A stretch of 64,000 nt of DNA from contig CAZJCG010000001.1 of NCBI GenBank assembly GCA_964544545.1, positions 38,073-102,072 of the forward strand, read 5' to 3'. This DNA comes from an uncultured Lentimicrobiaceae bacterium. Lineage in GTDB: Bacteria; Bacteroidota; Bacteroidia; Bacteroidales; UBA4417. The translations under genes and the position numbers were made by a program. The first letter of the stretch is position 1; the number at the start of each line of letters is the position of its first letter. Shown here in pieces: positions 2,000 through 31,954 of the stretch. The notes below the pieces were generated by a model. It saw only the letters and a program-made list of their open reading frames with translations, did no database searches and was not told the origin of the DNA.

Positions 2000-3160
2000 C
2001 TATTTAATGTTCTTTTGCCATGCTTCTGTTCCTGATGCATCTGTTTTGTTCAGGAAAATATAACTGCCACCGCTGTTACTCATGCCGGTGAGGCTAAAAC
2101 CGCCATCGCTTTGTTGTACTACCCCAGTGCCCTGGTCTATCTGGTCACCTCCGTAAGTATGGGTCCAGCTTACCGAACCGGTTGCATCAAATTTAGTCAG
2201 GCTGACATTCTGATCTGAACTTCCCGACGCGCTGGTAATTCCTGCAATTGCATAACCACCGTCAGAGGTCTGAATCAGGCCTGTCCCGAAATCATAACCT
2301 TTCCCGCCTGTAGAGTCAGCCCAAATCTTATCCCCATTGAGGGTTGTTTTCATCAGGTAGACATCCTGTGCATTAGAACTGACGGCTCCGCCAATTACCA
2401 GGTTCCCGTCGGATGCTACGATTACCGAATAACCTATGCCCTGGCTGTAGGTCTTTGTCCACAGACTATCGCCTGATGCATTGATTTTCATCAGGAAAAT
2501 ATTGCCACAGCAATTCGACTGACCTGACAAAGAACCGGTGATATAGAAGCTGCTATCGCCGACAGGTGCAATTGAATATGCAGCGTCGTAAGTTGATGCA
2601 GATGAAGAAGAATAAGGAGTTCCGTATCGTTTTTGCCATACAAGTCCGCCTCCTGCCGTAACTTTCACGAGATAAAGATCTCTGTCGGCACCATAATTAT
2701 TCTGGATGAAGCCGCAGGCAATGTACCCTCCGTCGCCGGAAGAGGTAACTGAAAACCCTTGTGCTATGCTGTCGCCGCCGAAGGTGGTGAGCCAGAGTTT
2801 CTCCCCGTTCTCATTTACCTTCAGGATCATAAGATTTGTATAGCTGTCGGAATAGGTTCCGACAAACCCGGTTGCCACATAACCGCCATCGGTCGAAGGT
2901 ATCACCTTATACAGACCGTCGGAGTATATTCCCCCATAAAAGTAGCCCCACTGAACTGCCCCTTCGGGACTTACCTTGGTCAGATACCCATCGTAGTTAC
3001 CGATACCGCCTGTATTGAAGCCTGCAATGATCATGTTTCCGTCGTTTGCAGGTATGATGCAGTTACCACCGCGCAGATAGGCCTCATCAAAGTCGTCTTT
3101 CTGGCAGGAGAATAGTGCGAGGATGGTCAGGAGAAGCAGAGAAGGGAAAAGGAATTTCAT
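2000..3160 (-). CDS. lipoprotein with a repeated beta-propeller-like module
   Basis: Lipobox-like N-terminus (LTILALFSC). About 45-50-aa repeats each centred on [ST]xDGG[YF]xxxG (TDGGYVATGF, GDGGYIACGF, SDGNLVIGGA, SDGGYAIAGI, SDGGFSLTGM). Confidence 0.65.
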   Translation of the reverse strand: MKFLFPSLLLLTILALFSCQKDDFDEAYLRGGNCIIPANDGNMIIAGFNTGGIGNYDGYLTKVSPEGAVQWGYFYGGIYSDGLYKVIPSTDGGYVATGFVGTYSDSYTNLMILKVNENGEKLWLTTFGGDSIAQGFSVTSSGDGGYIACGFIQNNYGADRDLYLVKVTAGGGLVWQKRYGTPYSSSSASTYDAAYSIAPVGDSSFYITGSLSGQSNCCGNIFLMKINASGDSLWTKTYSQGIGYSVIVASDGNLVIGGAVSSNAQDVYLMKTTLNGDKIWADSTGGKGYDFGTGLIQTSDGGYAIAGITSASGSSDQNVSLTKFDATGSVSWTHTYGGDQIDQGTGVVQQSDGGFSLTGMSNSGGSYIFLNKTDASGTEAWQKNIK

Positions 3161-3237
3161 GGTAAAACTTTAGGATTGAATGTAAATTGGAAGCACCTCA
3201 CAAAATTAACGAATGTTGGCGTGATATCCGGGAAACG

Positions 3238-3702
3238 TTACCACGAAGTGAAAGGGAACCGGGCCAGGCTGGTATTGAGATAACGATTGTCGCCGGTAAC
3301 CTCTTCCCCTACCCAGGGAGGCAGTTCAACATGTTCGTTTCTTTCGTCCAGTTCAACTTCCGCCAGCCATAACCCCTGGTTTTCTCCGTGAAATTCATCC
3401 ACTTCCCAGAGATGCCCGCCCCAGACAATCAGCCTTCTGGTCTTATTGATCAATGGCTTCCGGCAGAATTGCTCCAGCATGTATCCGGCGTCGTCGAACG
3501 GTATCTCATACTCAAATTCCACCCGTACTCCGTCGTTATCAGGTCCTTTGATGGTTATGAAAGACTGATGGCCTGAAATCCGTATTCGTATGGAGTTTCC
3601 TTCGTCCGACTGCAGGTATCCCTGCCGGATAGTAGTCCCGTCAAGCCCGGAGGGAAAAAGTTCCGGATGCACCAAGAATTTCCGTTCGATTTCAAGCGGC
3701 AT
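3238..3702 (-). CDS. CYTH domain protein (CyaB/ThTPase-like triphosphate tunnel enzyme)
   Basis: The N-terminal MPLEIERKFLV carries the ExExK signature of CYTH domains. The 154-aa size is typical. Confidence 0.85.
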   Translation of the reverse strand: MPLEIERKFLVHPELFPSGLDGTTIRQGYLQSDEGNSIRIRISGHQSFITIKGPDNDGVRVEFEYEIPFDDAGYMLEQFCRKPLINKTRRLIVWGGHLWEVDEFHGENQGLWLAEVELDERNEHVELPPWVGEEVTGDNRYLNTSLARFPFTSW

Positions 3703-3742: not shown

Positions 3743-5893
3743 TCAGTTCCGGATATCCAGTTCCCTGATCAGATTGGTTGCACCCGCATATTTATCGATG
3801 ATGAACAATACATAGCGGATGTCAACACAAATCGTCCTTTGGAGTGCCGGTTCAAAGGCATAGTTCCCGCTCATTGCCTCCCAGTTACCATCGAACGCGA
3901 GTCCGATCAGTTGTCCGTCTCCATTCAGCACCGGGCTTCCCGAGTTGCCACCCGTGATATCATTATCCGTCAGGAATGCCACGACCATCTTCCCGTCTTT
4001 GCCGTATGGTCCATAATCCTTTGCCTTATAGAGTTCCTTCAGCTTTTCAGGAACGATGAATTCCCAGCTCGTCGGATCTTCTTTCTGCATGATACCGTCG
4101 AGGGTGGTAACATAATCATAGTCGACTGCATCGGCAGGACTGTAATCGAGCACCTTCCCGTAGGTCAAGCGCATGGTACTGTTGGCATCAGGGTAGAATT
4201 TCTGATCCGGAAGCATTTCTCTGAGGCCTTTTACATAAAGCCTGCGCCCGTTCGTCAGCAGTTCCTGTCCGGGCTTCACCAGACTGTCGAGCAACTGGCT
4301 GTTGGCTGTAAATGCTTTCTGCAGTATCCAGGCCGGGTCCTTCTCCAAAGCTTTACGTGAGGGTGCTGTAAGGAAACGGTCAACTTTATCCTGGCTGGCG
4401 AACATCGATTTGGAGAATAGTTTCGCGGCATACAGGTTGAAATCGCCTTTGTATTGTTTCGCAATTTTATTCAGATAGTCAGGTTGCTGGGCCTGCGGGA
4501 CATCCTCGCGGAAGAGTTGCAGCATGGCAGCCAGCATTTTCTGGTCCGTTGGCGCATTGTAATTCTTGAAATACTGAGCAGCAGCATCCTGAGCTTTGTC
4601 GCTAAGACTCTTTATCAATTTGGGATCGGGATTGCTTTTTGCCAGTTCCCTGGAAAGGTTTTCGAACTGGCGGGTAAAAGCGATGATCTCACACCCCCTC
4701 ATGATGGCTTCGGAACTATACCGGATAGCAGTCTCATATTTATTGATGATGTTATAAGCCTTATCGATGTTGAAGAGTGCGTCGCGGTATATGGGAATCC
4801 TGTCACGGTTGGCATTCACCCAATCGGCAAACTGCTTTTCCAGTTCCCGTTTGCGTTCTTCAACATTCAGCCGTTTGAGCCCTTTATTCTGTCCGATATA
4901 GAATTTCCAGTAGTTTGCCGAGCCCGCATACTTGGAAGCGTACTTGATCCTCACTTCAGGGTCGGCATTCATGTCTTCCTTCAGAATAGCCAGTTTCCGC
5001 GTGCGGATCTTGACCACCGCCGGATTGTTATGTTCCAGAGCCCAGTCGATTGTGCCTGATGTTGCATAGCGGTCGGTGGTCCCGGGATAGCCAAGTATCA
5101 TGGCGAAGTCATTTTTCTGAACGCCTTTTAAAGATACCGGCAGAAATTGACGCGGTTTTAAGGGTACATTATTCTTATCGTACTCAGCCGGTTTGTTCTC
5201 CCGGTTGGCATACACCCGGAAGACTGAGAAATCGCCGGTATGCCTGGGCCACATCCAGTTATCGGAATCTGCTCCGAATTTGCCGATAGAAGAAGGCGGC
5301 GCACCAACAAGCCTAACATCTTTAAATACCTCATAAATAAAAAGGTAGTATTCATTCCCATTGAAGAATGAACTCACCCTGGCTTCGTATTGCGTCCCCT
5401 TGGTGGCGTTGGTTTCAAGTTTACGGATGTTCTCCCTGATCTTTGCAGCGCGCTCGGTCTCGTTCATACTCTCCGAAACATCTGCCTGTGCAGCAGCAGT
5501 TACATCCTGCATGCTGACCAGAAAACGGACCGAAAGACCGGGGATGGGCAATTCTTCCTCATAGCGGGCAGCCCAGAATCCATCCGTCAGGTAGTCGTGA
5601 TCGACAGTGCTCTGCGATTGTATTGCGCCATATCCGCAATGATGGTTTGTAAAAAGCAATCCCTGCCCGGAAACGATCTCCCCGGTGCATCCGCCGCCAA
5701 AATGTACAATGGCATCTTTCAGGCTATTGTGATTGATGCTGTAGATTTCTTCAGCAGTAAGGTGAAGGCCTTCTTTCTGCATATCAACATAGTTAAGGCG
5801 TTCGATGAACAGGGGCAGCCACATGCCTTCATCGGCATAAGCCCGCACCATGAATGAACCCAGAACCAGTACGAGGAACAGTATCCTTTTCAT
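3743..5893 (-). CDS. S46 family dipeptidyl-peptidase (DPP7/DPP11-like)
   Basis: Signal peptide followed by ADEGMWLP, HHCGY (catalytic His region) and GGNSGSPV (catalytic Ser). About 716 aa. The ATG at 5893 is preferred over the TTG at 5902 used by the ORF track. Confidence 0.9.
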   Translation of the reverse strand: MKRILFLVLVLGSFMVRAYADEGMWLPLFIERLNYVDMQKEGLHLTAEEIYSINHNSLKDAIVHFGGGCTGEIVSGQGLLFTNHHCGYGAIQSQSTVDHDYLTDGFWAARYEEELPIPGLSVRFLVSMQDVTAAAQADVSESMNETERAAKIRENIRKLETNATKGTQYEARVSSFFNGNEYYLFIYEVFKDVRLVGAPPSSIGKFGADSDNWMWPRHTGDFSVFRVYANRENKPAEYDKNNVPLKPRQFLPVSLKGVQKNDFAMILGYPGTTDRYATSGTIDWALEHNNPAVVKIRTRKLAILKEDMNADPEVRIKYASKYAGSANYWKFYIGQNKGLKRLNVEERKRELEKQFADWVNANRDRIPIYRDALFNIDKAYNIINKYETAIRYSSEAIMRGCEIIAFTRQFENLSRELAKSNPDPKLIKSLSDKAQDAAAQYFKNYNAPTDQKMLAAMLQLFREDVPQAQQPDYLNKIAKQYKGDFNLYAAKLFSKSMFASQDKVDRFLTAPSRKALEKDPAWILQKAFTANSQLLDSLVKPGQELLTNGRRLYVKGLREMLPDQKFYPDANSTMRLTYGKVLDYSPADAVDYDYVTTLDGIMQKEDPTSWEFIVPEKLKELYKAKDYGPYGKDGKMVVAFLTDNDITGGNSGSPVLNGDGQLIGLAFDGNWEAMSGNYAFEPALQRTICVDIRYVLFIIDKYAGATNLIRELDIRN

Positions 5894-7990: not shown

Positions 7991-8731
7991 ATGAAGATTT
8001 TGTATCACTTCGGACGATATCTTAACCTGTTGCTCAAGGTCTTCAAGCAACCGGAAAAAATGGCGGTATACCGCCGGCAGTTCATCGTTGAGGTTGAGAA
8101 CCTGGGTATGGCCTCCGTCTGGATCGTTGCGATCATTTCGGTGTTCATGGGGGCGGTGCTGACCATACAGATGGCGATTAATATCGACTCACCGCTTGTG
8201 CCCATTTATACTATCGGTTTTGCTACGCGTCAGAGCATCGTCCTGGAATTTGCCCCGACCATTATCAGCCTGATCCTCTGCGGCAAGGTCGGTTCGCGCA
8301 TTGCATCCGAGATCGGAACCATGCGGGTTACCGAGCAGATCGACGCGCTGGAGGCAATGGGCATCAACTCAGCGTCCTATCTCATCCTGCCTAAAATCAT
8401 GGCAGCCATGTTCATCTTCCCTTTTCTGATCATGATGAGCATGGTACTGGGAGTGATCGGAGGTTGGGCGGCAGGAACCGCAACCGGATCCATCACCTCC
8501 TATGGCTATATTTATGGCATCCAGTCATTTTTTCACATGTATGATATCTGGTATGCACTCATCAAAACGGTGGTTTTTGCATTCATCATCACTTCCATAT
8601 CCTCGTATCACGGATATTACACGCAGGGCGGAGCGCTGGAAGTAGGCAATGCCAGCACCGACGGGGTCGTATATAGCAGTATAGCGATCATCTTTTCCAA
8701 CCTGATCCTCACCCAACTCCTTCTGGCATGA
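7991..8731 (+). CDS. mlaE: MlaE-family ABC transporter permease
   Basis: Multi-TM protein with the MlaE-type EQIDALE motif (MRVTEQIDALEAMG). ATGA overlap with the downstream ATPase. ATG at 7991 preferred over TTG at 7982. Confidence 0.85.
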   Translation: MKILYHFGRYLNLLLKVFKQPEKMAVYRRQFIVEVENLGMASVWIVAIISVFMGAVLTIQMAINIDSPLVPIYTIGFATRQSIVLEFAPTIISLILCGKVGSRIASEIGTMRVTEQIDALEAMGINSASYLILPKIMAAMFIFPFLIMMSMVLGVIGGWAAGTATGSITSYGYIYGIQSFFHMYDIWYALIKTVVFAFIITSISSYHGYYTQGGALEVGNASTDGVVYSSIAIIFSNLILTQLLLA

Positions 8732-15888: not shown

Positions 15889-17274
15889 ATGAAAAAAATT
15901 TTACATTATATTTTGTTCCTCGCCTTGCTGCTTATCCTGCTGCCGTCATGCGGAAAAAGCCATTCCGGCAATGGATTAAATCCGGAATTCAAACCGGGAA
16001 CTGTAGTCGGCCGGGTGACTGTTCAGGCTGATACACTGCAAACCTATGCCCTTTTTGTTCCTTCCGGGTATTCCGGTGATACAAAGTGGCCATTGGTGAT
16101 CTGTTTCGACCCTCATGCCGAAGGACTGCTCCCGGTCAACCTGTTCAAAGCACAGGCAGAAAAATACGGGTTCATCCTGGCGGGTTCCAACAACTCAAAG
16201 AACGGCCTGTCGTTGGATGAAACCACCGGCATTTGCCGGAATATGCTGGAGGACCTGAAACAACGCTTTGCCGTTGATGATTCGGTGATCTATCTTGCAG
16301 GATTCTCGGGCGGATCACGGGTGGCAGGCAGCATCGCTCTCACCGAAGGTACCATTGCCGGAGTGATTGGCTGCGGGGCAGGACTTCCCAATCTTAATCA
16401 AAGACCCGTCAGGAAATTCAGTTATCTGGCTGTCGCCGGGACCAAAGATTTCAACTATTCCGAACTCCGGCAACTCGACGATGTGCTCGAATCGGCAGGT
16501 TTCACCCATTATATGCTTGAATTCGACGGCCCCCATGCCTGGCCTCCTGATTCTTTAACAAGTCCCATATTTACCTGGATCCAGTTCGACCGGATGCGCA
16601 ACGGAAGTCTGCCGGCCGACCGGGACGCAATCAACCGTTTCATCGATCAGACATACTCCAATGCAGAGAAAGCAGGGAAAACTGACCTGCTTCGAAAGGT
16701 AAGCATCCTGAAGATGATGAAGCATTACCTGGACGGACTCACCGACATCACTCCCCTGCAGGATGAAATAGACAGGCTTGAGAAAGATCCCTTGGTAATG
16801 AAATTGGAGGAAAACCAGGCACTCCTGTTTGAAAAAGAAAACTACCTGAAGGAAGGGTATGCCCGCCAGTTGCAGACAGAAAGCCTCGGATGGTGGTCGC
16901 AGGAAGCCGCAAAACTCCGGAAAAAGGCAAACGCTCCTTCCAACTCTGCTGAAACAGCCATGTATCAGCGTGTACTTGGTTTCCTGAGTATGAATTCCTA
17001 TTCCTTGTCGAATTCGGCTTTAAAAATGAATGACCTTACCGCTGCGGATCATGCGATCGGATTGTACGAGGCCGTTGATCCGGAGAATCCCGAACACCGG
17101 TACATGGCTGCTACCGTTTCGATAAAAAAAGGTAACAGCAGCCTGGCTATCAACCAACTTTCTTCTGCCATCAAACTGGGGTTCAAGGATTTCACCCGAT
17201 TGAAAAACGACCCGATATTTACCCCTCTACATGGCAATCCTCAGTTTCAAAAGCTATTTCCTACCCATCCTTAA
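15889..17274 (+). CDS. lipoprotein with an N-terminal alpha/beta-hydrolase (esterase-like) domain and a helical C-terminal domain
   Basis: ATG at 15889 gives MKKILHYILFLALLLILLPSCGK (lipobox). GxSxG nucleophile elbow GFSGGS. C-terminal half is helical and TPR-like. Exact family not recognised. Confidence 0.55.
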   Translation: MKKILHYILFLALLLILLPSCGKSHSGNGLNPEFKPGTVVGRVTVQADTLQTYALFVPSGYSGDTKWPLVICFDPHAEGLLPVNLFKAQAEKYGFILAGSNNSKNGLSLDETTGICRNMLEDLKQRFAVDDSVIYLAGFSGGSRVAGSIALTEGTIAGVIGCGAGLPNLNQRPVRKFSYLAVAGTKDFNYSELRQLDDVLESAGFTHYMLEFDGPHAWPPDSLTSPIFTWIQFDRMRNGSLPADRDAINRFIDQTYSNAEKAGKTDLLRKVSILKMMKHYLDGLTDITPLQDEIDRLEKDPLVMKLEENQALLFEKENYLKEGYARQLQTESLGWWSQEAAKLRKKANAPSNSAETAMYQRVLGFLSMNSYSLSNSALKMNDLTAADHAIGLYEAVDPENPEHRYMAATVSIKKGNSSLAINQLSSAIKLGFKDFTRLKNDPIFTPLHGNPQFQKLFPTHP

Positions 17275-17284
17275 AACTACTAAA

Positions 17285-18553
17285 ATGAAGAAATTATTCC
17301 TGCTGGCGTTTTTGTTAACGGTTTTATCAGCAAATGCAGCCTTCGACGACTGGTTCTATCCCAGGACACTGCGGATCGATTACTACCATAGCGGAGATTC
17401 AAAAAGTGAGTCCTATTCCATCGACCGTCTTCTGAGCGAGGAATACTGGGGCGGATCCAGGACCAACCTGCTCGATACCCTCAACATGGGAAAATACTTT
17501 TTTAAAGCCTTTGACGTGGCTACCAACAAGTTGATATACAGTCATGGGTACTGCACGCTGTTCGATGAGTGGCAGTTTACGGAAGAAGCAAAGACAACCC
17601 GTAAAAGTTTCACTGAAACCGTAGTCATGCCTTACCCGAAACAGGATGTGCGGCTGGAATTTTACAGCCGGAACAATAAAGGGCATTTCGACAAGGTCTT
17701 CGAATATGTGGTTGATGTGGACAGCTACTTTATCTCCACCGAACGGCGTTACATTTTCCCGGTTTATGAGGTATTGAAGAGCGGCGATCCTGCAAACACT
17801 ATCGACGTGGTGATCCTGCCTGAAGGTTATACGGATAAAGAGATGGATCTTTTCAAGTCCGATTGCGACAAGTTTGCCAGGGAACTTTTCACCTTTGATC
17901 CGTACTCCAAAAACAAGGATAAGTTCAACATCAGAGGTATCCTGGCCCCGTCAGCCGAAAGCGGCACCGACATCCCGGGTGACCGGATCTGGAAGAACAC
18001 TATCCTGAATTCGCAGTTCTATACCTTCGATTCGGAACGCTACCTCATGACCTTCGACAACAGGAGTGTACGCGATGTAGCATCCAATGCTCCCTATGAC
18101 ATCATTTATATACTGGTGAACAGTACCAAGTACGGAGGCGGTGCCATCTATAATCATTACAACACCTCGGTGAACAGCAATGTTTCCTCTGCCAAGATCT
18201 TCGTCCACGAACTGGGCCATGGATTTGCCGGTCTGGGGGATGAATACGACGACGGCTCTACTGCATTCAATGACATGTATCCACTGGATATCGAACCCTG
18301 GGAGCCTAACCTGACGACCCTGGCAGACTTCAGCCGAAAATGGAAGGATATGCTGCCTGCCGGAACACTTATCCCTACCCCGCTGAACCCAGAGGATCCT
18401 CTGAAACTGGGTGTTTATGAAGGTGGAGGTTACGTAACCAAAGGCATTTACCGTCCGGTGACCGACTGCCTGATGCGCACCTTTAAAGGGAATGAATTCT
18501 GCCCGGTATGCAAACGTGCTATCCAGCAGATGATTGATGTTTATACGAAGTAA
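17285..18553 (+). CDS. M64 family (IgA peptidase-like) metallopeptidase
   Basis: HELGHGFAGLGDEY (HExxH plus GLxDEY), typical of peptidase M64. ATG at 17285 gives the signal peptide MKKLFLLAFLLTVLSANA and removes overlap with the upstream gene. Confidence 0.85.
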   Translation: MKKLFLLAFLLTVLSANAAFDDWFYPRTLRIDYYHSGDSKSESYSIDRLLSEEYWGGSRTNLLDTLNMGKYFFKAFDVATNKLIYSHGYCTLFDEWQFTEEAKTTRKSFTETVVMPYPKQDVRLEFYSRNNKGHFDKVFEYVVDVDSYFISTERRYIFPVYEVLKSGDPANTIDVVILPEGYTDKEMDLFKSDCDKFARELFTFDPYSKNKDKFNIRGILAPSAESGTDIPGDRIWKNTILNSQFYTFDSERYLMTFDNRSVRDVASNAPYDIIYILVNSTKYGGGAIYNHYNTSVNSNVSSAKIFVHELGHGFAGLGDEYDDGSTAFNDMYPLDIEPWEPNLTTLADFSRKWKDMLPAGTLIPTPLNPEDPLKLGVYEGGGYVTKGIYRPVTDCLMRTFKGNEFCPVCKRAIQQMIDVYTK

Positions 18554-18554
18554 A

Positions 18555-19440
18555 GGGAAGAAAAGATAAAAGATAAAAGTAAAAAGATAAAAGATACAAT
18601 TTGAGAATGTAAAAATGTATGAATTTGAGAATTAGTTAATTAGCTGATTTGATGATTCGACGATTCGGTGATTGAATTTCAATTGTAATCATCCTTTTAG
18701 CCCTTTGCCCTAAGCTCTTTGCTGATTAAAGACAAAAGATAAAAGGAAAAAGATAAAAGACTTACGATGAATGGCTACGAATGACTATGAATGACCATGA
18801 ATGACAGCTCACAAATGCTCTGCACCTAGCCCTAAGCTCTTTGCTGATTAAAGATAAAAGACAAAAGGCAAAAGATAAAAGATACAATTTAAGAATGTAG
18901 GAATGTAGAAATTTGAGAATTAGTTAATTAGCTAATTCGGTGATTCGATGATTCGATGATTGAAATTCAATTGTACCTCAGCTCTTTGCCCTCTGCTACA
19001 TTATGATAAAAGCCTTCAATAAATGACGATGAATGGCTACGAATTACTATGAATGACCATGAATGACCATGAATGACAGCTCACAAATGATCTGCACCTA
19101 GCCCTAAGCTCTTTGCTGATTAAAGATAAAAGACAAAAGACAAAAGACAAAAGATAAAAGATACAATTTGAGAATGTAGGAATGTAGGAGTTTGAGAATT
19201 AGTTAATTAGCTGATTCGGTGATTCGACGATTCGGTGATTGAATTTCAATTGTACTTCATCCTCTTAGCCCTTTGCCCTAAGCTCTTTGCTGATTAAAGA
19301 CAAAAGATAAAAGGAAAAAGATAAAAGACTTACGATGAATGGCTACGAATGACTATGAATGACAACGAATGATCCGCCAGCCGGCGGAAGTGACAACTTA
19401 CTCCCTGCTCTCTGCTCTCAGCCCTTTGCCATTTGCACCT
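18555..19440. repeat. composite higher-order tandem repeat (about 280-290 bp period, 3 copies) built from nested 7-10-nt micro-repeats
   Basis: The marker gatacaattt recurs at 18593, 18881 and 19160. The junction taagctctttgctgattaaaga recurs at 18711, 18833, 19105 and 19279. Sub-modules: (aaaga[tc]aaaag)n, gaatgtag doublets, gaattagttaattagctgatt, (tgattcgn)n, (atgaatgac[ct])n. No ORF of 60 aa or more. Confidence 0.9.
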
Positions 19441-19445
19441 GCCTG

Positions 19446-19453
19446 TAGTTTTG
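19446..19453 (+). promoter_or_regulatory. candidate Bacteroidota -7 promoter element for mtnA
   Basis: tagttttg matches the TAnnTTTG consensus 71 nt upstream of the ATG. No convincing -33 TTTG at canonical spacing. Confidence 0.25.
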
Positions 19454-19523
19454 TAGTCAGAGCCGAAGGATTTTTCAGGGTCTTGCTAAATGTTGCCAAT
19501 AATTACCGCACGCACATCAGCCT

Positions 19524-20672
19524 ATGAAAGTAAATAACCATGCTTACCGAACGATATGGATGGAAGGCTCATCGGTCTTTATGATCGATCAGAATGTCCT
19601 GCCGTTCGGGTTCCGTATTTATGAAGCGAAAACCTGCAGTGATACCTGTGTGGCGATCAGGACGATGATCACAAGAGGTGCGGGGGCAATCGGTGCTGCT
19701 GCAGGATTTGCGATGGCCCAGGCCTGCCTGGAAGCAAACCTTGCTGTAAAGGGGACGGTTGAGAGTAGTAGCCTTACCGGACAAAAGAGTAATATACCAT
19801 CGGAAAAACGAAATCCTGAGTCTGGTAACGCTCCCGACAATCAGTATAGCCGATTCATTCAGAATGCCCGTGAAGAGATTGAGGCTACCCGCCCGACTGC
19901 AAGAAATCTCTTTTATGCCGTAGAAAAAGTATTTGAAGCAGGCATGCAATCAGCCTCAGCCGCGGTTACCGAAGCACAGCTGCTCGCAGAAGAGAACCTC
20001 GCTGACGCAATGAAAATTGCAGAAGCCGGTAATGCCATTATCAGGGATGGATTCAGGATACTTACTCACTGCAATGCCGGCTGGCTGGGATTTGTAGACT
20101 GGGGAAGTGCCTTAGCGCCGATATACCGGGCCCACCGGGAAGGCAAGGACATCTTTGTGTACGCCGATGAAACAAGACCCCGGGGACAGGGAGCCCGGCT
20201 GACAGCCTGGGAACTGGAAAATGAGGGAGTACCTCATACCATCGTTCCGGATAATGCCGGAGCTTATCTTATGTCGAAAGGATTGATTGATATGGTGATC
20301 GTCGGGGCCGACCGGATCGCAGCCAACGGCGATACAGCCAACAAGATAGGGACTTTTGAAAAAGCAATTATAGCCAAAGAATTCGGGATTCCTTTTTACG
20401 TTGCGGCGCCTTTGTCGACATTCGACTTCACGATTTCAAACGGCAGTATGATACCGATTGAAGAGCGAAGTCCTGATGAACTTCTGTACCAGTCGGGGCC
20501 GGATGAAACCGGTCATATTCGTCGTATCCGGGTTGCATCGCCGGGCTCCGGTGCGATCAATCCTGCCTTCGACGTCACTCCGGTGAGTTATATCAAAGCA
20601 TTCATCACCGAAAAAGGAATTATCGGTACATCCCGGGAGGCCCTTTCTTCCGTGGCAACCAGCCATTATTAG
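19524..20672 (+). CDS. mtnA: S-methyl-5-thioribose-1-phosphate isomerase / eIF-2B-related isomerase
   Basis: Alignable by eye to MtnA: RGAGAIGAAAGF, TRPTARNL, HCNAG, ETRP..QGARLTAWEL, GADRIAANGDTANKIGT, FYVAAPLSTFD, NPAFDVTP. Contains a low-complexity insertion of about 30 aa. Confidence 0.8.
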   Translation: MKVNNHAYRTIWMEGSSVFMIDQNVLPFGFRIYEAKTCSDTCVAIRTMITRGAGAIGAAAGFAMAQACLEANLAVKGTVESSSLTGQKSNIPSEKRNPESGNAPDNQYSRFIQNAREEIEATRPTARNLFYAVEKVFEAGMQSASAAVTEAQLLAEENLADAMKIAEAGNAIIRDGFRILTHCNAGWLGFVDWGSALAPIYRAHREGKDIFVYADETRPRGQGARLTAWELENEGVPHTIVPDNAGAYLMSKGLIDMVIVGADRIAANGDTANKIGTFEKAIIAKEFGIPFYVAAPLSTFDFTISNGSMIPIEERSPDELLYQSGPDETGHIRRIRVASPGSGAINPAFDVTPVSYIKAFITEKGIIGTSREALSSVATSHY

Positions 20673-29471: not shown

Positions 29472-31331
29472 GTGAATGAATATCCGCTTTCTGCCTGGCT
29501 GCCCATCACCCGTGACGAAATGCTGAAACGCGGCTGGGAAGAAGTGGACGTTGTCCTTATTTCCGGGGATGCCTATGTAGATCATCCCGCCTTCGGCAGC
29601 GCGCTGATAGCCAGAGTGATTGAATCCGCGGGTTACAGGGTGGCCTTAGTGCCTCAGCCCAACTGGCAGGATGACCTGCGCGATTTCCGGAAGTTCGGCC
29701 GGCCACGTATCTGCTTTGCAGTCTCCGCAGGCAATATGGATTCGATGGTGAACCATTATACAGCCAACAAACGTCTCCGGAGCGACGACGCCTACACGCC
29801 CGGCGGAAAGTCAGGCTTTCGTCCCGATTACGCCACACGCGTTTATACACAGTCGCTGAAGAAGATCTATCCTGACGTTCCGGTCATTATCGGCGGTATC
29901 GAGGCTTCCATGCGCCGCCTCGCGCATTACGACTACTGGAGCGACAGCCTGATGCCTTCAATCCTTGCCGACAGCGGAGCTGACCTCCTCATCTACGGCA
30001 TGGCAGAGAAAGCGATCGTGGAAACCCTGAAACGTCTTGAAAAGCAACATGATGTCGCCTGGCTGACAGACATCCCGCAAACGGCCTTCGTCGTGGATTC
30101 ATCCCTGGCCGCTGTTATGGCGAAAGAGATGCCCTCGATCGAATTACCTTCCTTTACCGAATGCCTGAATGATAAAAAAGCTTTTGCACGGGCATTCCGG
30201 GAGATCGAGAACGAATCTAACAAGATGTCGGCTAAAAGGCTGATCCAGCCAACCGGAAATGTGGCTGTGATCGTAAATCCTCCCTACCCTACCATGACGA
30301 CAGCCGAAGTGGATGCTGCATACGATCTTCCTTACACCCGGCTGCCTCATCCCAAGTACAACAAGCGGGGCGTCATCCCGGCCTACGAGATGATCCGCCA
30401 TTCGGTGAACATTCACCGCGGATGTTTCGGAGGCTGTTCGTTCTGCACCCTGGCCATGCACCAGGGCAAATTCATCGCCAGCCGTTCGGAGGAATCCATC
30501 ATGAAAGAAGTGGAGGCTGTCACCAGAATGCCCGATTTCAAAGGCTATGTCACTGACCTCGGGGCTCCATCGGCCAATATGTACCGTATGCAGGGCTTTG
30601 ATCTTTCTATCTGTGCCAAATGCAACCGCCCATCCTGCATCTTCCCGAATATCTGCAGGAACCTCAACACCGACCACATTCCCCTCACTGAGCTTTACCG
30701 GAAAGCAGCTACAGTGAAAGGCGTAAAGAAGGTAACCATCGGAAGCGGGGTCCGGTACGATATGCTCGTTGGCAGGACTGCTGATGAAGACAAACGTTTC
30801 GGACTGACAGTCTATACCAATCAGCTGATCAGGAACCATGTTTCCGGCCGCCTGAAAGTAGCACCTGAGCATACCAGCGATTCCGTCCTCAAAATCATGC
30901 GAAAACCGTCGTTCAGGCTTTTTCATGACTTCCGGAAAGTATTCGATGCCATCAACCGGGAAGCAGGATTGAAGCAACAACTCATTCCTTATTTCATCTC
31001 CAGTCATCCGGGAAGCCGCCTGCAGGACATGGCCCGGCTGGCACTCGAAACCAGGGATCTGGGATTCCAGTTGGAACAGGTACAGGACTTTACCCCTACG
31101 CCAATGACGCTTTCAAGTGTTATCTATTGGTCAGGTATCCACCCCTTTACAGGTGAAACAGTCTATACTCCCAGATCGAAACAGGATAAGCTCGACCAAC
31201 GTCAGTTCTTTTTCTGGTATAAACCTGAAAACAAGGATGCTATCCGCAGAACCCTTGTGAAAATCGGCGAGAATAAACTTGCTGATGCATTGTTGGGTAA
31301 GGGGAAGAGGAAAGAAAATGGCAGAATTTAG
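29472..31331 (+). CDS. ygiQ: YgiQ family (UPF0313) radical SAM protein
   Basis: Alignable by eye to E. coli YgiQ: GDAYVDHPAFG, GNMDSMVNHYTA, GGIEASMRRLAHYDYWSD, IPAYEMIRHSVNIHRGCFGGCSFC, KVAPEHT, LIPYFISSHPG. Start uncertain (GTG 29472 or TTG 29439). Confidence 0.85.
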   Translation: MNEYPLSAWLPITRDEMLKRGWEEVDVVLISGDAYVDHPAFGSALIARVIESAGYRVALVPQPNWQDDLRDFRKFGRPRICFAVSAGNMDSMVNHYTANKRLRSDDAYTPGGKSGFRPDYATRVYTQSLKKIYPDVPVIIGGIEASMRRLAHYDYWSDSLMPSILADSGADLLIYGMAEKAIVETLKRLEKQHDVAWLTDIPQTAFVVDSSLAAVMAKEMPSIELPSFTECLNDKKAFARAFREIENESNKMSAKRLIQPTGNVAVIVNPPYPTMTTAEVDAAYDLPYTRLPHPKYNKRGVIPAYEMIRHSVNIHRGCFGGCSFCTLAMHQGKFIASRSEESIMKEVEAVTRMPDFKGYVTDLGAPSANMYRMQGFDLSICAKCNRPSCIFPNICRNLNTDHIPLTELYRKAATVKGVKKVTIGSGVRYDMLVGRTADEDKRFGLTVYTNQLIRNHVSGRLKVAPEHTSDSVLKIMRKPSFRLFHDFRKVFDAINREAGLKQQLIPYFISSHPGSRLQDMARLALETRDLGFQLEQVQDFTPTPMTLSSVIYWSGIHPFTGETVYTPRSKQDKLDQRQFFFWYKPENKDAIRRTLVKIGENKLADALLGKGKRKENGRI

Positions 31332-31735
31332 AAATTTGAGAATGTGGGAATTAGTTAATTAGCTGATTAGCAAATTAGCTGATTAGCTGATGCGGGAAAT
31401 TGGGGAATTTAGAAATGAAGAAATTTAGGAATATATGAATTTGATAATTAGTTGATTCGGTGAATAGCTGATTAGCTGATGCGGGAAATTGGGAAATTTA
31501 GAAATGAATGAATTTAGGAATGTAAGAATTTGAAAATTAGCTGATTCGGTGATTAGCTGATTAGCTGATGCGGAAATTCAGAAATGAAAGAATTTAAGAA
31601 TTTAGAAATGTGATAATGTGATAATGTGATAATTAGCTGATTCGGTGATGAAATTTGGGAATGTGAAAATTTGGGAATTTAAAAATGTAAAAATTTGAAA
31701 ATTAGGCTATTCGACAATTTATACTATCTACTAAT
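31332..31735. repeat. tandem repeat array (89-bp period x3 plus degenerate tail), related to the 18.6-19.4 kb array
   Basis: gattagctgatgcgg recurs at 31381, 31470 and 31559. It shares the 21-mer gaattagttaattagctgatt (31348-31368) and ctgattcggtgat with the first array. The tail contains (gtgataat)3. It begins at the ygiQ stop codon. No ORF of 60 aa or more. Confidence 0.9.
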
Positions 31736-31954
31736 TATTACTATCGTTGATCATTAGACAATATGAGCAGTGTTTACCAGAAATGGGGTGACACTTCTTA
31801 AGATCATTTCGGATTTAATTCGTGCCTTCGTGGCAAATTTTGTTCTCCTGGTGTTCGCAACCAGTTAGGGATATGCGATGATCAGCGATTTTTTTCTGCG
31901 GGATCGGTTGGAAATAATCCCGGAAAAAGCATGTCTGCTTCAGTATGTGTTACC

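Follow-up and report, generated by a model that had tools for sequence, protein, structure and literature searches.

Nested tandem repeats of 7-, 8- and 10-nt words in the spacer that separates a peptidase gene from mtnA in an uncultured Lentimicrobiaceae bacterium: a probable lineage-specific compound minisatellite

Assemblages of short direct repeats have been described in several bacterial groups. TAACTGA and other heptamer direct repeats were found in Beggiatoaceae, Cyanobacteria and five Bacteroidetes, with Bacteroidetes assemblages in Gramella forsetii, Aequorivita sublithincola and Elizabethkingia anophelis (MacGregor 2015, PMC4679880). Several kinds of heptamer repeat shared one long intergenic region, the assemblages were missing in the closest relatives with the same gene neighbourhoods, contigs ended inside the repeats, and a link with gene rearrangement was suggested (PMC4679880). 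Polymerase slippage was proposed as the origin of long simple sequence repeats (SSRs) with 5–11-nt units (Mrazek et al. 2007, as cited in PMC4679880). Here we describe a repeat array of about 0.8 kb, array 1, which lies between a peptidase M64 gene and mtnA in an uncultured Lentimicrobiaceae bacterium (assembly GCA_964544545.1). The analysed stretch of contig CAZJCG010000001.1, 64 kb in length, is called the window. Array 1 belonged to a class that is described and poorly understood, the compound long-SSR clusters, and was unusual in form. It is probably a compound minisatellite specific to this lineage, to which slippage and unequal recombination gave rise, in which no particular sequence is required and which acts at most as an untranslatable spacer.

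Tandem units of 5–11 nt beyond chance, the defining trait of compound long-SSR clusters, were found in array 1, where three word families and C-rich 7-mers were clustered in one intergenic gap. The first-pass annotation of this DNA had not recognised a described element, which was too strong a statement given the similar heptamer assemblages in Bacteroidetes (PMC4679880). As in those assemblages, several kinds of tandem 7–11-nt words shared one unusually long intergenic region, the words contained stop codons, close relatives had short repeat-free spacers, the neighbourhood was rearranged and contigs ended in the repeats. However, the words of array 1 were AAAGAYA, GAATGTAG/TGATTCGN and ATGAATGACY, without TAACTGA, the modules were built into a higher-order unit of 279–288 nt that was repeated 2.8 times, and the array adjoined the upstream stop codon.

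Array 1 also shared some properties with other repeat systems. Cyanobacterial short tandemly repeated repetitive (STRR) heptamers form intergenic tandem arrays with lineage-typical words and nested small dispersed repeats. The heptamer and octamer arrays of the window were likewise intergenic, and exact elements of about 21 nt recurred in different arrays, but they belonged to another phylum and used other words, and the 21-mer here read as three consecutive 8-mer words. Eukaryotic alpha satellite is an example of higher-order satellite repeats. Nested periodicities from local duplication and divergence, together with rapid lineage-specific evolution, were common to alpha satellite, to the tandem repeats of archaeal Borgs and to array 1; the latter differed in its 0.8 kb scale, its location in a bacterial chromosome and its lack of a centromere-like or protein-coding role. 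Borg repeats were described as near-perfect and recently formed (PMC9879509), whereas the units of array 1 were 80–84% identical. Head-to-tail non-coding units of tens to hundreds of nucleotides, and copy-number differences between strains in a sister array (array 2), were shared with bacterial minisatellites or variable-number tandem repeats (VNTRs). A minisatellite has been described inside a MITE (miniature inverted-repeat transposable element) of Porphyromonas gingivalis (PMC4596501). Unlike that element, array 1 had neither consistent terminal inverted repeats nor target duplications, and its units were built of micro-repeats.

The gap between the M64 stop (18553) and the mtnA start (19524) was 970 nt. 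Tandem Repeats Finder (TRF) reported a single array at 18562–19372 with a period of 288, 2.8 copies, 80% matches and a score of 986, and about 2.8 head-to-tail units extended across 18554–19372 (Table 1). This confirmed the three-copy repeat of about 280–290 bp that had been noticed in the first pass as filling almost the entire gap. Its marker GATACAATTT was present only at 18593, 18881 and 19160; the chance expectation was 0.32, and three occurrences were reached in 0 of 100 shuffles. In the alignment of the three units the mean column identity was 84%. The micro-repeats that had been listed as modules proved to be nested arrays, with periods of 7 (AAAGATA/AAAGACA), 8 (GAATGTAG, TGATTCGN) and 10/20 (ATGAATGACY) and 2.2–6.6 copies each, and autocorrelation peaked at lag 7 (0.76), lag 8 (0.61–0.66) and lag 10 (0.77–0.79). 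The simple string of modules had to be revised, since each unit actually comprised two sub-units and unit 2 had diverged. Sub-unit A opened with the purine 7-mers (AAAGAYA)n, continued with in-phase 8-mers over 95 nt and closed with a C-rich tail ending in GCCCTAAGCTCTTTGCTGATT, and sub-unit B consisted of a 7-mer run, ACTTACG, (ATGAATGRCY)n and again a C-rich tail. The repeat-family analysis of array 1 found the tail GCCCTAAGCTCTTTGCTGATT four times.

The eleven 8-mers of each block (gagAATgt aggAATgt ... gctGATtc ggtGATtc) followed a single register and kept a RAT core at positions 4–6, which is the pattern expected of tandem duplicates that later diverged. The 21-mer GAATTAGTTAATTAGCTGATT within this block was exact at 18629 and 19196 and was represented by a one-base variant in unit 2. 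Units 1 and 3 shared an exact repeat of 99 bp (18697 and 19265, 568 nt apart), and unit 2 was diverged, indicating that the latest duplication spanned two units.

Table 1. Coordinates of array 1, its modules, the neighbouring features and related word arrays (positions in the window, except for the contigs L009 and L013)
Feature	Position	Strand	Remark
Peptidase_M64 gene	17231–18553	+	TAA stop at 18551–18553; array 1 begins one base later
Unit 1	18554–18849	+	two sub-units, array 1
Unit 1, 7-mer run (AAAGAYA)n	18556–18592	+	
Unit 1, 8-mer block	18593–18687	+	GATACAATTT through CAATTGTA; 21-mer at 18629 inside
Unit 1, first C-rich tail	18688–18727	+	
Unit 1, second 7-mer run	18728–18759	+	
Unit 1, 10-mer block (ATGAATGRCY)n	18767–18805	+	
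Unit 1, second C-rich tail	18806–18849	+	
Unit 2	18850–19121	+	diverged copy, array 1
Unit 2, 7-mer run	18850–18880	+	
Unit 2, 8-mer block	18881–18975	+	
Unit 2, degenerate tail	18976–19014	+	second 7-mer run mostly absent
Unit 2, 10-mer block	19022–19077	+	
Unit 2, C-rich tail	19078–19121	+	
Unit 3	19122–19373	+	last sub-unit truncated, array 1
Unit 3, 7-mer run	19122–19159	+	
Unit 3, 8-mer block	19160–19254	+	21-mer at 19196
Unit 3, C-rich tail	19255–19295	+	
Unit 3, second 7-mer run	19296–19327	+	
Unit 3, 10-mer block	19335–19373	+	
GC hairpin CCGCC-AGCC-GGCGG	19374–19387	+	right edge of array 1, no U-run after; not scored as intrinsic terminator
Degenerate C-rich 7-mer run (CTCCCTG CTCTCTG CTCTCAG CCCTTTG CCATTTG ...)	19397–19445	+	homologous to unit tails
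Putative Bacteroidota-type mtnA promoter TTTG-N17-TAGTTTTG (-33/-7)	19425–19453	+	pattern match
mtnA (S-methyl-5-thioribose-1-phosphate isomerase, IF-2B family)	19524–20672	+	
Array 2	31323–31710	+	about 48 in-phase 8-mer words; higher-order unit 89 nt, 3.3 copies
Word array of a family-level relative	L009 241–357		directly after a stop codon
Word array of a family-level relative	L013 247–336		directly after a stop codon
Word array of a family-level relative	L013 7716–7860		directly after a stop codon

Array 1 was not unique: the related array 2 began on the TAG stop of ygiQ (31329–31331), about 12 kb from array 1 and in the same orientation. The 21-mer of array 1 recurred exactly in array 2 at 31348, and the unit of array 2 and the 8-mer block of array 1 were 76–78% identical over 86 nt, with the same word order. 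Array 2 sat between the convergent genes ygiQ and usp (144 aa), so that there was no downstream gene for it to regulate.

The closest named relatives were Bacteroidales and Lentimicrobiaceae metagenome-assembled genomes (MAGs) with about 70% identity. Relatives with 80–82% identical YgiQ kept the gene order RND-OEP...ygiQ / usp-...-sigma70, and the spacer between ygiQ and usp was 12 and 9 nt in two of them, compared with 624 nt here. In one of those relatives mtnA was located 6 nt after an M20 peptidase gene. The M64 gene of four relatives was followed by pta-ackA or by an FG-GAP gene, with spacers of 50–285 nt and without the array. Array 1 thus occupies a synteny breakpoint, and the short array-free spacers of the relatives indicated that both arrays were gained in this lineage.

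Comparison between strains showed that whole words and whole units came and went. Relative to array 2 of the window, strain L019 (1.46% diverged) was longer by 16 nt (a 16-mer), 88 nt (one whole 89-nt unit) and 8 nt (one 8-mer), and the copy number of the 89-nt unit was 3.3 in one strain and 4.1 in the other. Substitutions in array 2 (13/379, 3.43%) were as frequent as at four-fold degenerate sites (106/2949, 3.59%; Fisher p = 1.0). For array 1, the strain comparison covered the last 70 nt and the edge, in one other strain (L018). There were 0 differences in these 70 nt, which was not significant at the background divergence of 1.7%. At the edge, the degenerate C-rich 7-mer run of L018 had lost one 7-mer and gained another, and the promoter was conserved.

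In a separate observation, the non-repetitive DNA from array 2 to the usp stop (31711–31954) differed by 11.9% between the window and L019, compared with 3.6% at four-fold sites (p = 1.5e-7). This could reflect either fast evolution or a recombination patch.

The longest ORFs (open reading frames) in the gap were 41 aa on the minus strand and 52 aa on the plus strand, in agreement with the earlier statement that none reached 60 aa. A coding role was rejected because no ORF exceeded 52 aa and the mini-ORFs after the A-rich runs (MNGYE*, MNGYELL*) differed between units. The array had also been called stop-codon-dense. Stops were indeed present in all plus-strand frames, but their number was only modestly above that expected from composition (87, where dinucleotide shuffles gave 76.3 ± 4.4; z = 2.4). 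The longest stop-free runs were 31 codons on the plus strand and 53 on the minus strand, and a plus-strand run as short or shorter occurred in 2.7% of the shuffles. The density of stops was mostly a consequence of the C-poor, A-rich strand and of the periodic words.

The GC content of array 1 was 33% and that of the flanks about 50%, and the plus strand of the array contained more G than C and more A than T. In this lineage, gene 3′ flanks were not depleted of C (G exceeded it in 19 of 51), and the arrays were therefore not a mere exaggeration of the usual 3′-flank composition. A Rho loading site within array 1 was considered and was not convincing, as the C/G ratio of the tails at the sub-unit ends was just 1.1–1.7 and G exceeded C overall.

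Signals of a specific function were sought in several ways. Rfam gave no match in the whole window at gathering thresholds and, in a permissive search of 18400–19650, chance-level matches only (E ≥ 0.5). Array 1 folded no better than shuffled sequences (z = −0.29 and +0.12 for the plus and minus strands of unit 1, and −0.29 for unit 3); these results did not favour the structured or processed non-coding RNA array that had been considered in the first pass. No terminator-like sites were detected by an intrinsic terminator scan of 18300–19700, and a scan of array 1 for sigma-70-type promoters showed no excess of promoter-like sites. Predicted curvature, computed with a wedge model, was unremarkable: the mean was 11.2, compared with 8.8 in the window and 35 in a phased A-tract control. 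Its maximum of 23.1 was near the 99th percentile of the window (22.7) and outside the 12 highest peaks, and the 10-mer block was mildly raised (15–17). BLAST searches of two array-1 units against plasmid and phage record collections found no match, and a literature search for the exact array words returned matches only in unrelated microRNA papers.

Several known elements were rejected because array 1 lacked a defining feature of each. As in a CRISPR array, a short exact 21-mer recurred at roughly regular spacing, but this spacing, 279–288 nt, was far too long, and the intervals between the 21-mers were themselves repeated, at the column identity given above, and so contained no unique spacers. 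No Cas domain was present in the seven neighbouring proteins scanned, which included the peptidase, MtnA, an RND (resistance-nodulation-division) efflux system and a lyase. A MITE was rejected since no consistent terminal inverted repeats bounded array 1 and no flanking duplication was visible; a 13-nt inverted pair (85%) surrounded the 8-mer block in unit 2 only. The first-pass view that the array was neither a CRISPR, a MITE nor a simple satellite was therefore upheld. An iteron array, which that annotation had listed as possible, or a replication origin did not fit either, because the same seven neighbours included no replication gene, the cumulative GC skew had no turning point at 18.5 kb and the spacing was not phased.

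Array 1 might have formed as follows. Stop-codon-rich words of 7, 8 and 10 nt would have been amplified locally by slipped-strand mispairing, and the copies would then have diverged through point mutation with their register kept. Blocks of words, along with some of the C-rich sequence near the promoter, may have been re-duplicated by unequal recombination, which would give the sub-units of about 120 nt, the unit of 279–288 nt and a latest duplication about 568 nt apart. Its physical effect, possibly neutral, would be to separate the M64 gene from the mtnA promoter by about 0.8 kb of untranslatable RNA or DNA; the array would presumably be transcribed by read-through from the M64 gene and have no sequence-specific function.

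The words were also found outside array 1. The core word TAATTAGCTGA contained the stops TAA, TAG and TGA, each in a different frame. The window had 12 matches to it with at most one mismatch, where 0.92 would be expected, and every one of them lay in array 1 or array 2. A pattern scan of metagenomes with AATTAGCTRATTCGGTGAT gave two loci only for the related 19-mer, one in an rRNA-operon spacer and the other a hemE-like coding coincidence, and did not return the source contigs themselves. Scans of viral contigs for the C-rich tail and the 19-mer found no match.

Among viral contigs, L028 (IMG/VR 3300000234_000505) contained (TGATTAGY)n arrays of up to 19.6 copies. Two of its arrays were checked against ORFs (2542–2596 and 3237–3393), and both began on the stop codons of genes that follow each other in the same direction; G-poor word runs (2496–2542, 3119–3154) led up to the ATG of the next gene. 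Family-level relatives had smaller arrays right after stop codons, such as (ACGATTT)17, (TTTACGAATGACGA)n and (GTTAATGGAAAAT)n. Paired with their inverted copies downstream, those of L009 and L013 (Table 1) gave long hairpins (z = −2.7 and −5.4). At orthologous sites, two species had different words and periods (7 vs 14).

Several observations weigh against the minisatellite reading. All 12 of the TAATTAGCTGA-like matches in the window were on the plus strand. Among 11 arrays from several Bacteroidota and one viral contig, the sense words started −13 to +15 nt from the stop of a long ORF on the same strand in 10 (9 of 10 independent loci), and this asymmetry suggests a constraint at the transcript or translation level. 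The exact 21-mer was present in three Bacteroidota MAGs of other lineages (Chitinophagales, 'Bacteroidetes bacterium' and Alkalitalea), always within word-rich intergenic DNA. The sense RNA of array 2 folded far better than shuffles (z = −4.6, −83.4 kcal/mol) and the antisense RNA less so (z = −1.5, −24.5 kcal/mol), because UUAGCUGA is self-complementary through G-U pairs. The asymmetries of strand, position and array-2 folding were the main evidence that this vocabulary is not purely neutral. The neutral rate, moreover, was obtained from a comparison that covered array 2 only. Finally, the arrays persisted in at least three strains whose four-fold sites had diverged by about 3.6%, although their long direct repeats should make them prone to deletion, which hints at some benefit or at a balance of expansion and contraction.

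Strand-specific word arrays that abut stop codons, of the TAATTAGCTGA and (TGATTAGY)n types, were present here and in Bacteroidota of other orders, and also in an rRNA-operon spacer and, on a viral contig, between successive genes. It is conceivable, though rather doubtful, that they represent a functional post-stop or intercistronic class in which array 1 is an expanded higher-order member. Such a class, if functional, could release ribosomes in all frames or serve as a platform for RNA-binding proteins in a phylum without Shine-Dalgarno-based initiation. In one unlikely alternative, array 1 would be a selected insulator of transcription and translation: ribosomes would be released in every frame after M64, a factor such as Rho would act on the C > G tails, and the mtnA-RND operon would be driven only from its own promoter. 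This would agree with the lack of an intrinsic terminator between the M64 stop and mtnA, the stops in all plus-strand frames and the short longest open run, the C/G of 1.1–1.7 at the end of every sub-unit, and the putative promoter just after array 1; as mtnA lay 6 nt from the upstream gene in a relative, the rearrangement might have created the need for a new boundary. However, array 2 lay between convergent genes where relatives manage with 9–12 nt, the 8-mer arrays of L028 between successive co-directional genes argue against strong termination, the overall excess of G over C on the sense strand was the reverse of what a classical Rho loading site shows, and array 2 was substituted at a neutral rate. 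The insulator considered in the first pass, or an untranslatable spacer, was compatible with the data. We also regard as improbable an RNA-level element of the 3′ untranslated region (3′ UTR) or intercistronic region, whose words would bind an S1, cold-shock or RNA recognition motif (RRM) protein as a sponge, stabiliser or localisation signal, with multivalent sites formed by RAU every 8 nt, A-rich 7-mers and AUGAAUGAC 10-mers. S1, Csp or CsrA-like binders were proposed for the TAACTGA repeats (MacGregor 2015, PMC4679880), and the strong bias of strand and of position with respect to the upstream stop codon, the sense-specific folding of array 2, which depended on G-U pairs, and the long 3′ hairpins of the relatives' arrays point in this direction. 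Against it, array 1 had neither a folding excess nor an Rfam match, the words drifted at the neutral rate while whole units came and went, the same sites in relatives were without arrays, and no candidate binding protein was encoded beside either array.

At the DNA level, the array might be an iteron-like, nucleoid-protein or regulator binding site, or a bent-DNA element, acting on mtnA or the local chromosome. The recurrence of exact 21-mers and 8-mer words, the AT-rich composition and the near-helical period of the 10-mer block with its raised curvature would suit such a site. It is nevertheless very unlikely, since the periods of 7 and 8 nt were out of helical phase, curvature was unremarkable, there was no adjacent replication or DNA-binding gene and no skew switch, a strict strand orientation to the upstream gene is not expected of a DNA-level site, and array 2 had no downstream gene to regulate. 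Still less credence can be given to a contingency (phase-variation) locus, in which the number of units would switch or tune mtnA expression, as had been suggested in the first pass. Strain differences in unit number, in array 2 and on the 3′ edge of array 1, spoke for it. The putative promoter and the 5′ UTR, however, were wholly downstream of array 1, and no ORF spanned the array, so that the number of units would change neither the promoter spacing nor the reading frame; the 7-mer turnover in L018 likewise left the distance from −33 to −7 unchanged, mtnA is a housekeeping salvage gene, and no gene followed array 2 in its own direction. An assembly artefact, with the repeat mis-joined, collapsed or expanded, is extremely improbable. 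The exact 99-bp repeat common to units 1 and 3 could favour such an error, and Logan contigs from two other samples stopped inside array 1 (19334) and 39 nt into array 2, but contig ends of this kind are what real repeats would produce where an assembly cannot span them. An identical 7,149-bp locus with the complete array 1 was assembled independently from two JGI (Joint Genome Institute) samples, the JGI assembly of L019 appeared to reach about 719 nt upstream of mtnA and thus into array 1, and with units 80–84% identical most of array 1 was resolvable; the copy number given here is that of the assembly.

Arrays of this kind have several practical consequences. Such arrays break short-read assemblies, as two Logan assemblies ended at both arrays, and they mark synteny breakpoints and are usable as VNTR strain-typing markers for this uncultured Bacteroidales lineage. 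The present case shows that, within the time over which a genus diverges, a bacterium can build a 0.8-kb higher-order repeat from 7–10-nt words, and it adds quantitative evidence (neutral rate, whole-unit indels, absence in relatives) on an under-studied phenomenon. Only the orientation of the words and their association with stop codons, as seen across Bacteroidota, could point to a real function.

Promoters of Bacteroides follow a −33/−7 consensus, and this pattern was used to search for the promoter of mtnA. The match TTTG-N17-TAGTTTTG was one of only two full plus-strand matches in the window. It lay downstream of array 1, with about 70 nt between it and the mtnA ATG, and its −33 TTTG fell inside the degenerate C-rich 7-mer run. 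The stretch 19460–19535, with the mtnA 5′ UTR and first codons, had 14 differences in 76 nt relative to L018, compared with an average of 1.7% over the 5.9-kb locus, and the promoter boxes just upstream of it were conserved. The mtnA product aligned from residue 1 with annotated S-methyl-5-thioribose-1-phosphate isomerases (homologue P0141). Its residues 72–105 (19737–19838) formed a 34-residue low-complexity insertion relative to a 69%-identical homologue.

Further word arrays were noticed in contigs of other origin. In L016 (Ga0265313_10009333, 2600–3030), a Bacteroidota-like rRNA-operon spacer contained AATTAGCTGATT-type words after tRNA-Ile and tRNA-Ala, with inverted copies (AATCAGCTAATT) downstream that could form long stems. 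The 8-mer arrays of the viral contig L028 were located at 624–755, 2496–2596, 3119–3154, 3237–3393 and 3758–3834. The 21-mer was also present directly after a long-ORF stop in the 149-kb viral contig L015 (IMG/VR 3300032236_001417, 8540–8590), which may be due to chance. On the upstream side of array 1, the longest M64 ORF overlapped an upstream 481-aa ORF by 44 nt (17231–17274). In the gene call of another assembly M64 started 18 codons later, and the resulting length of 422 aa was equal to that of its homologues.

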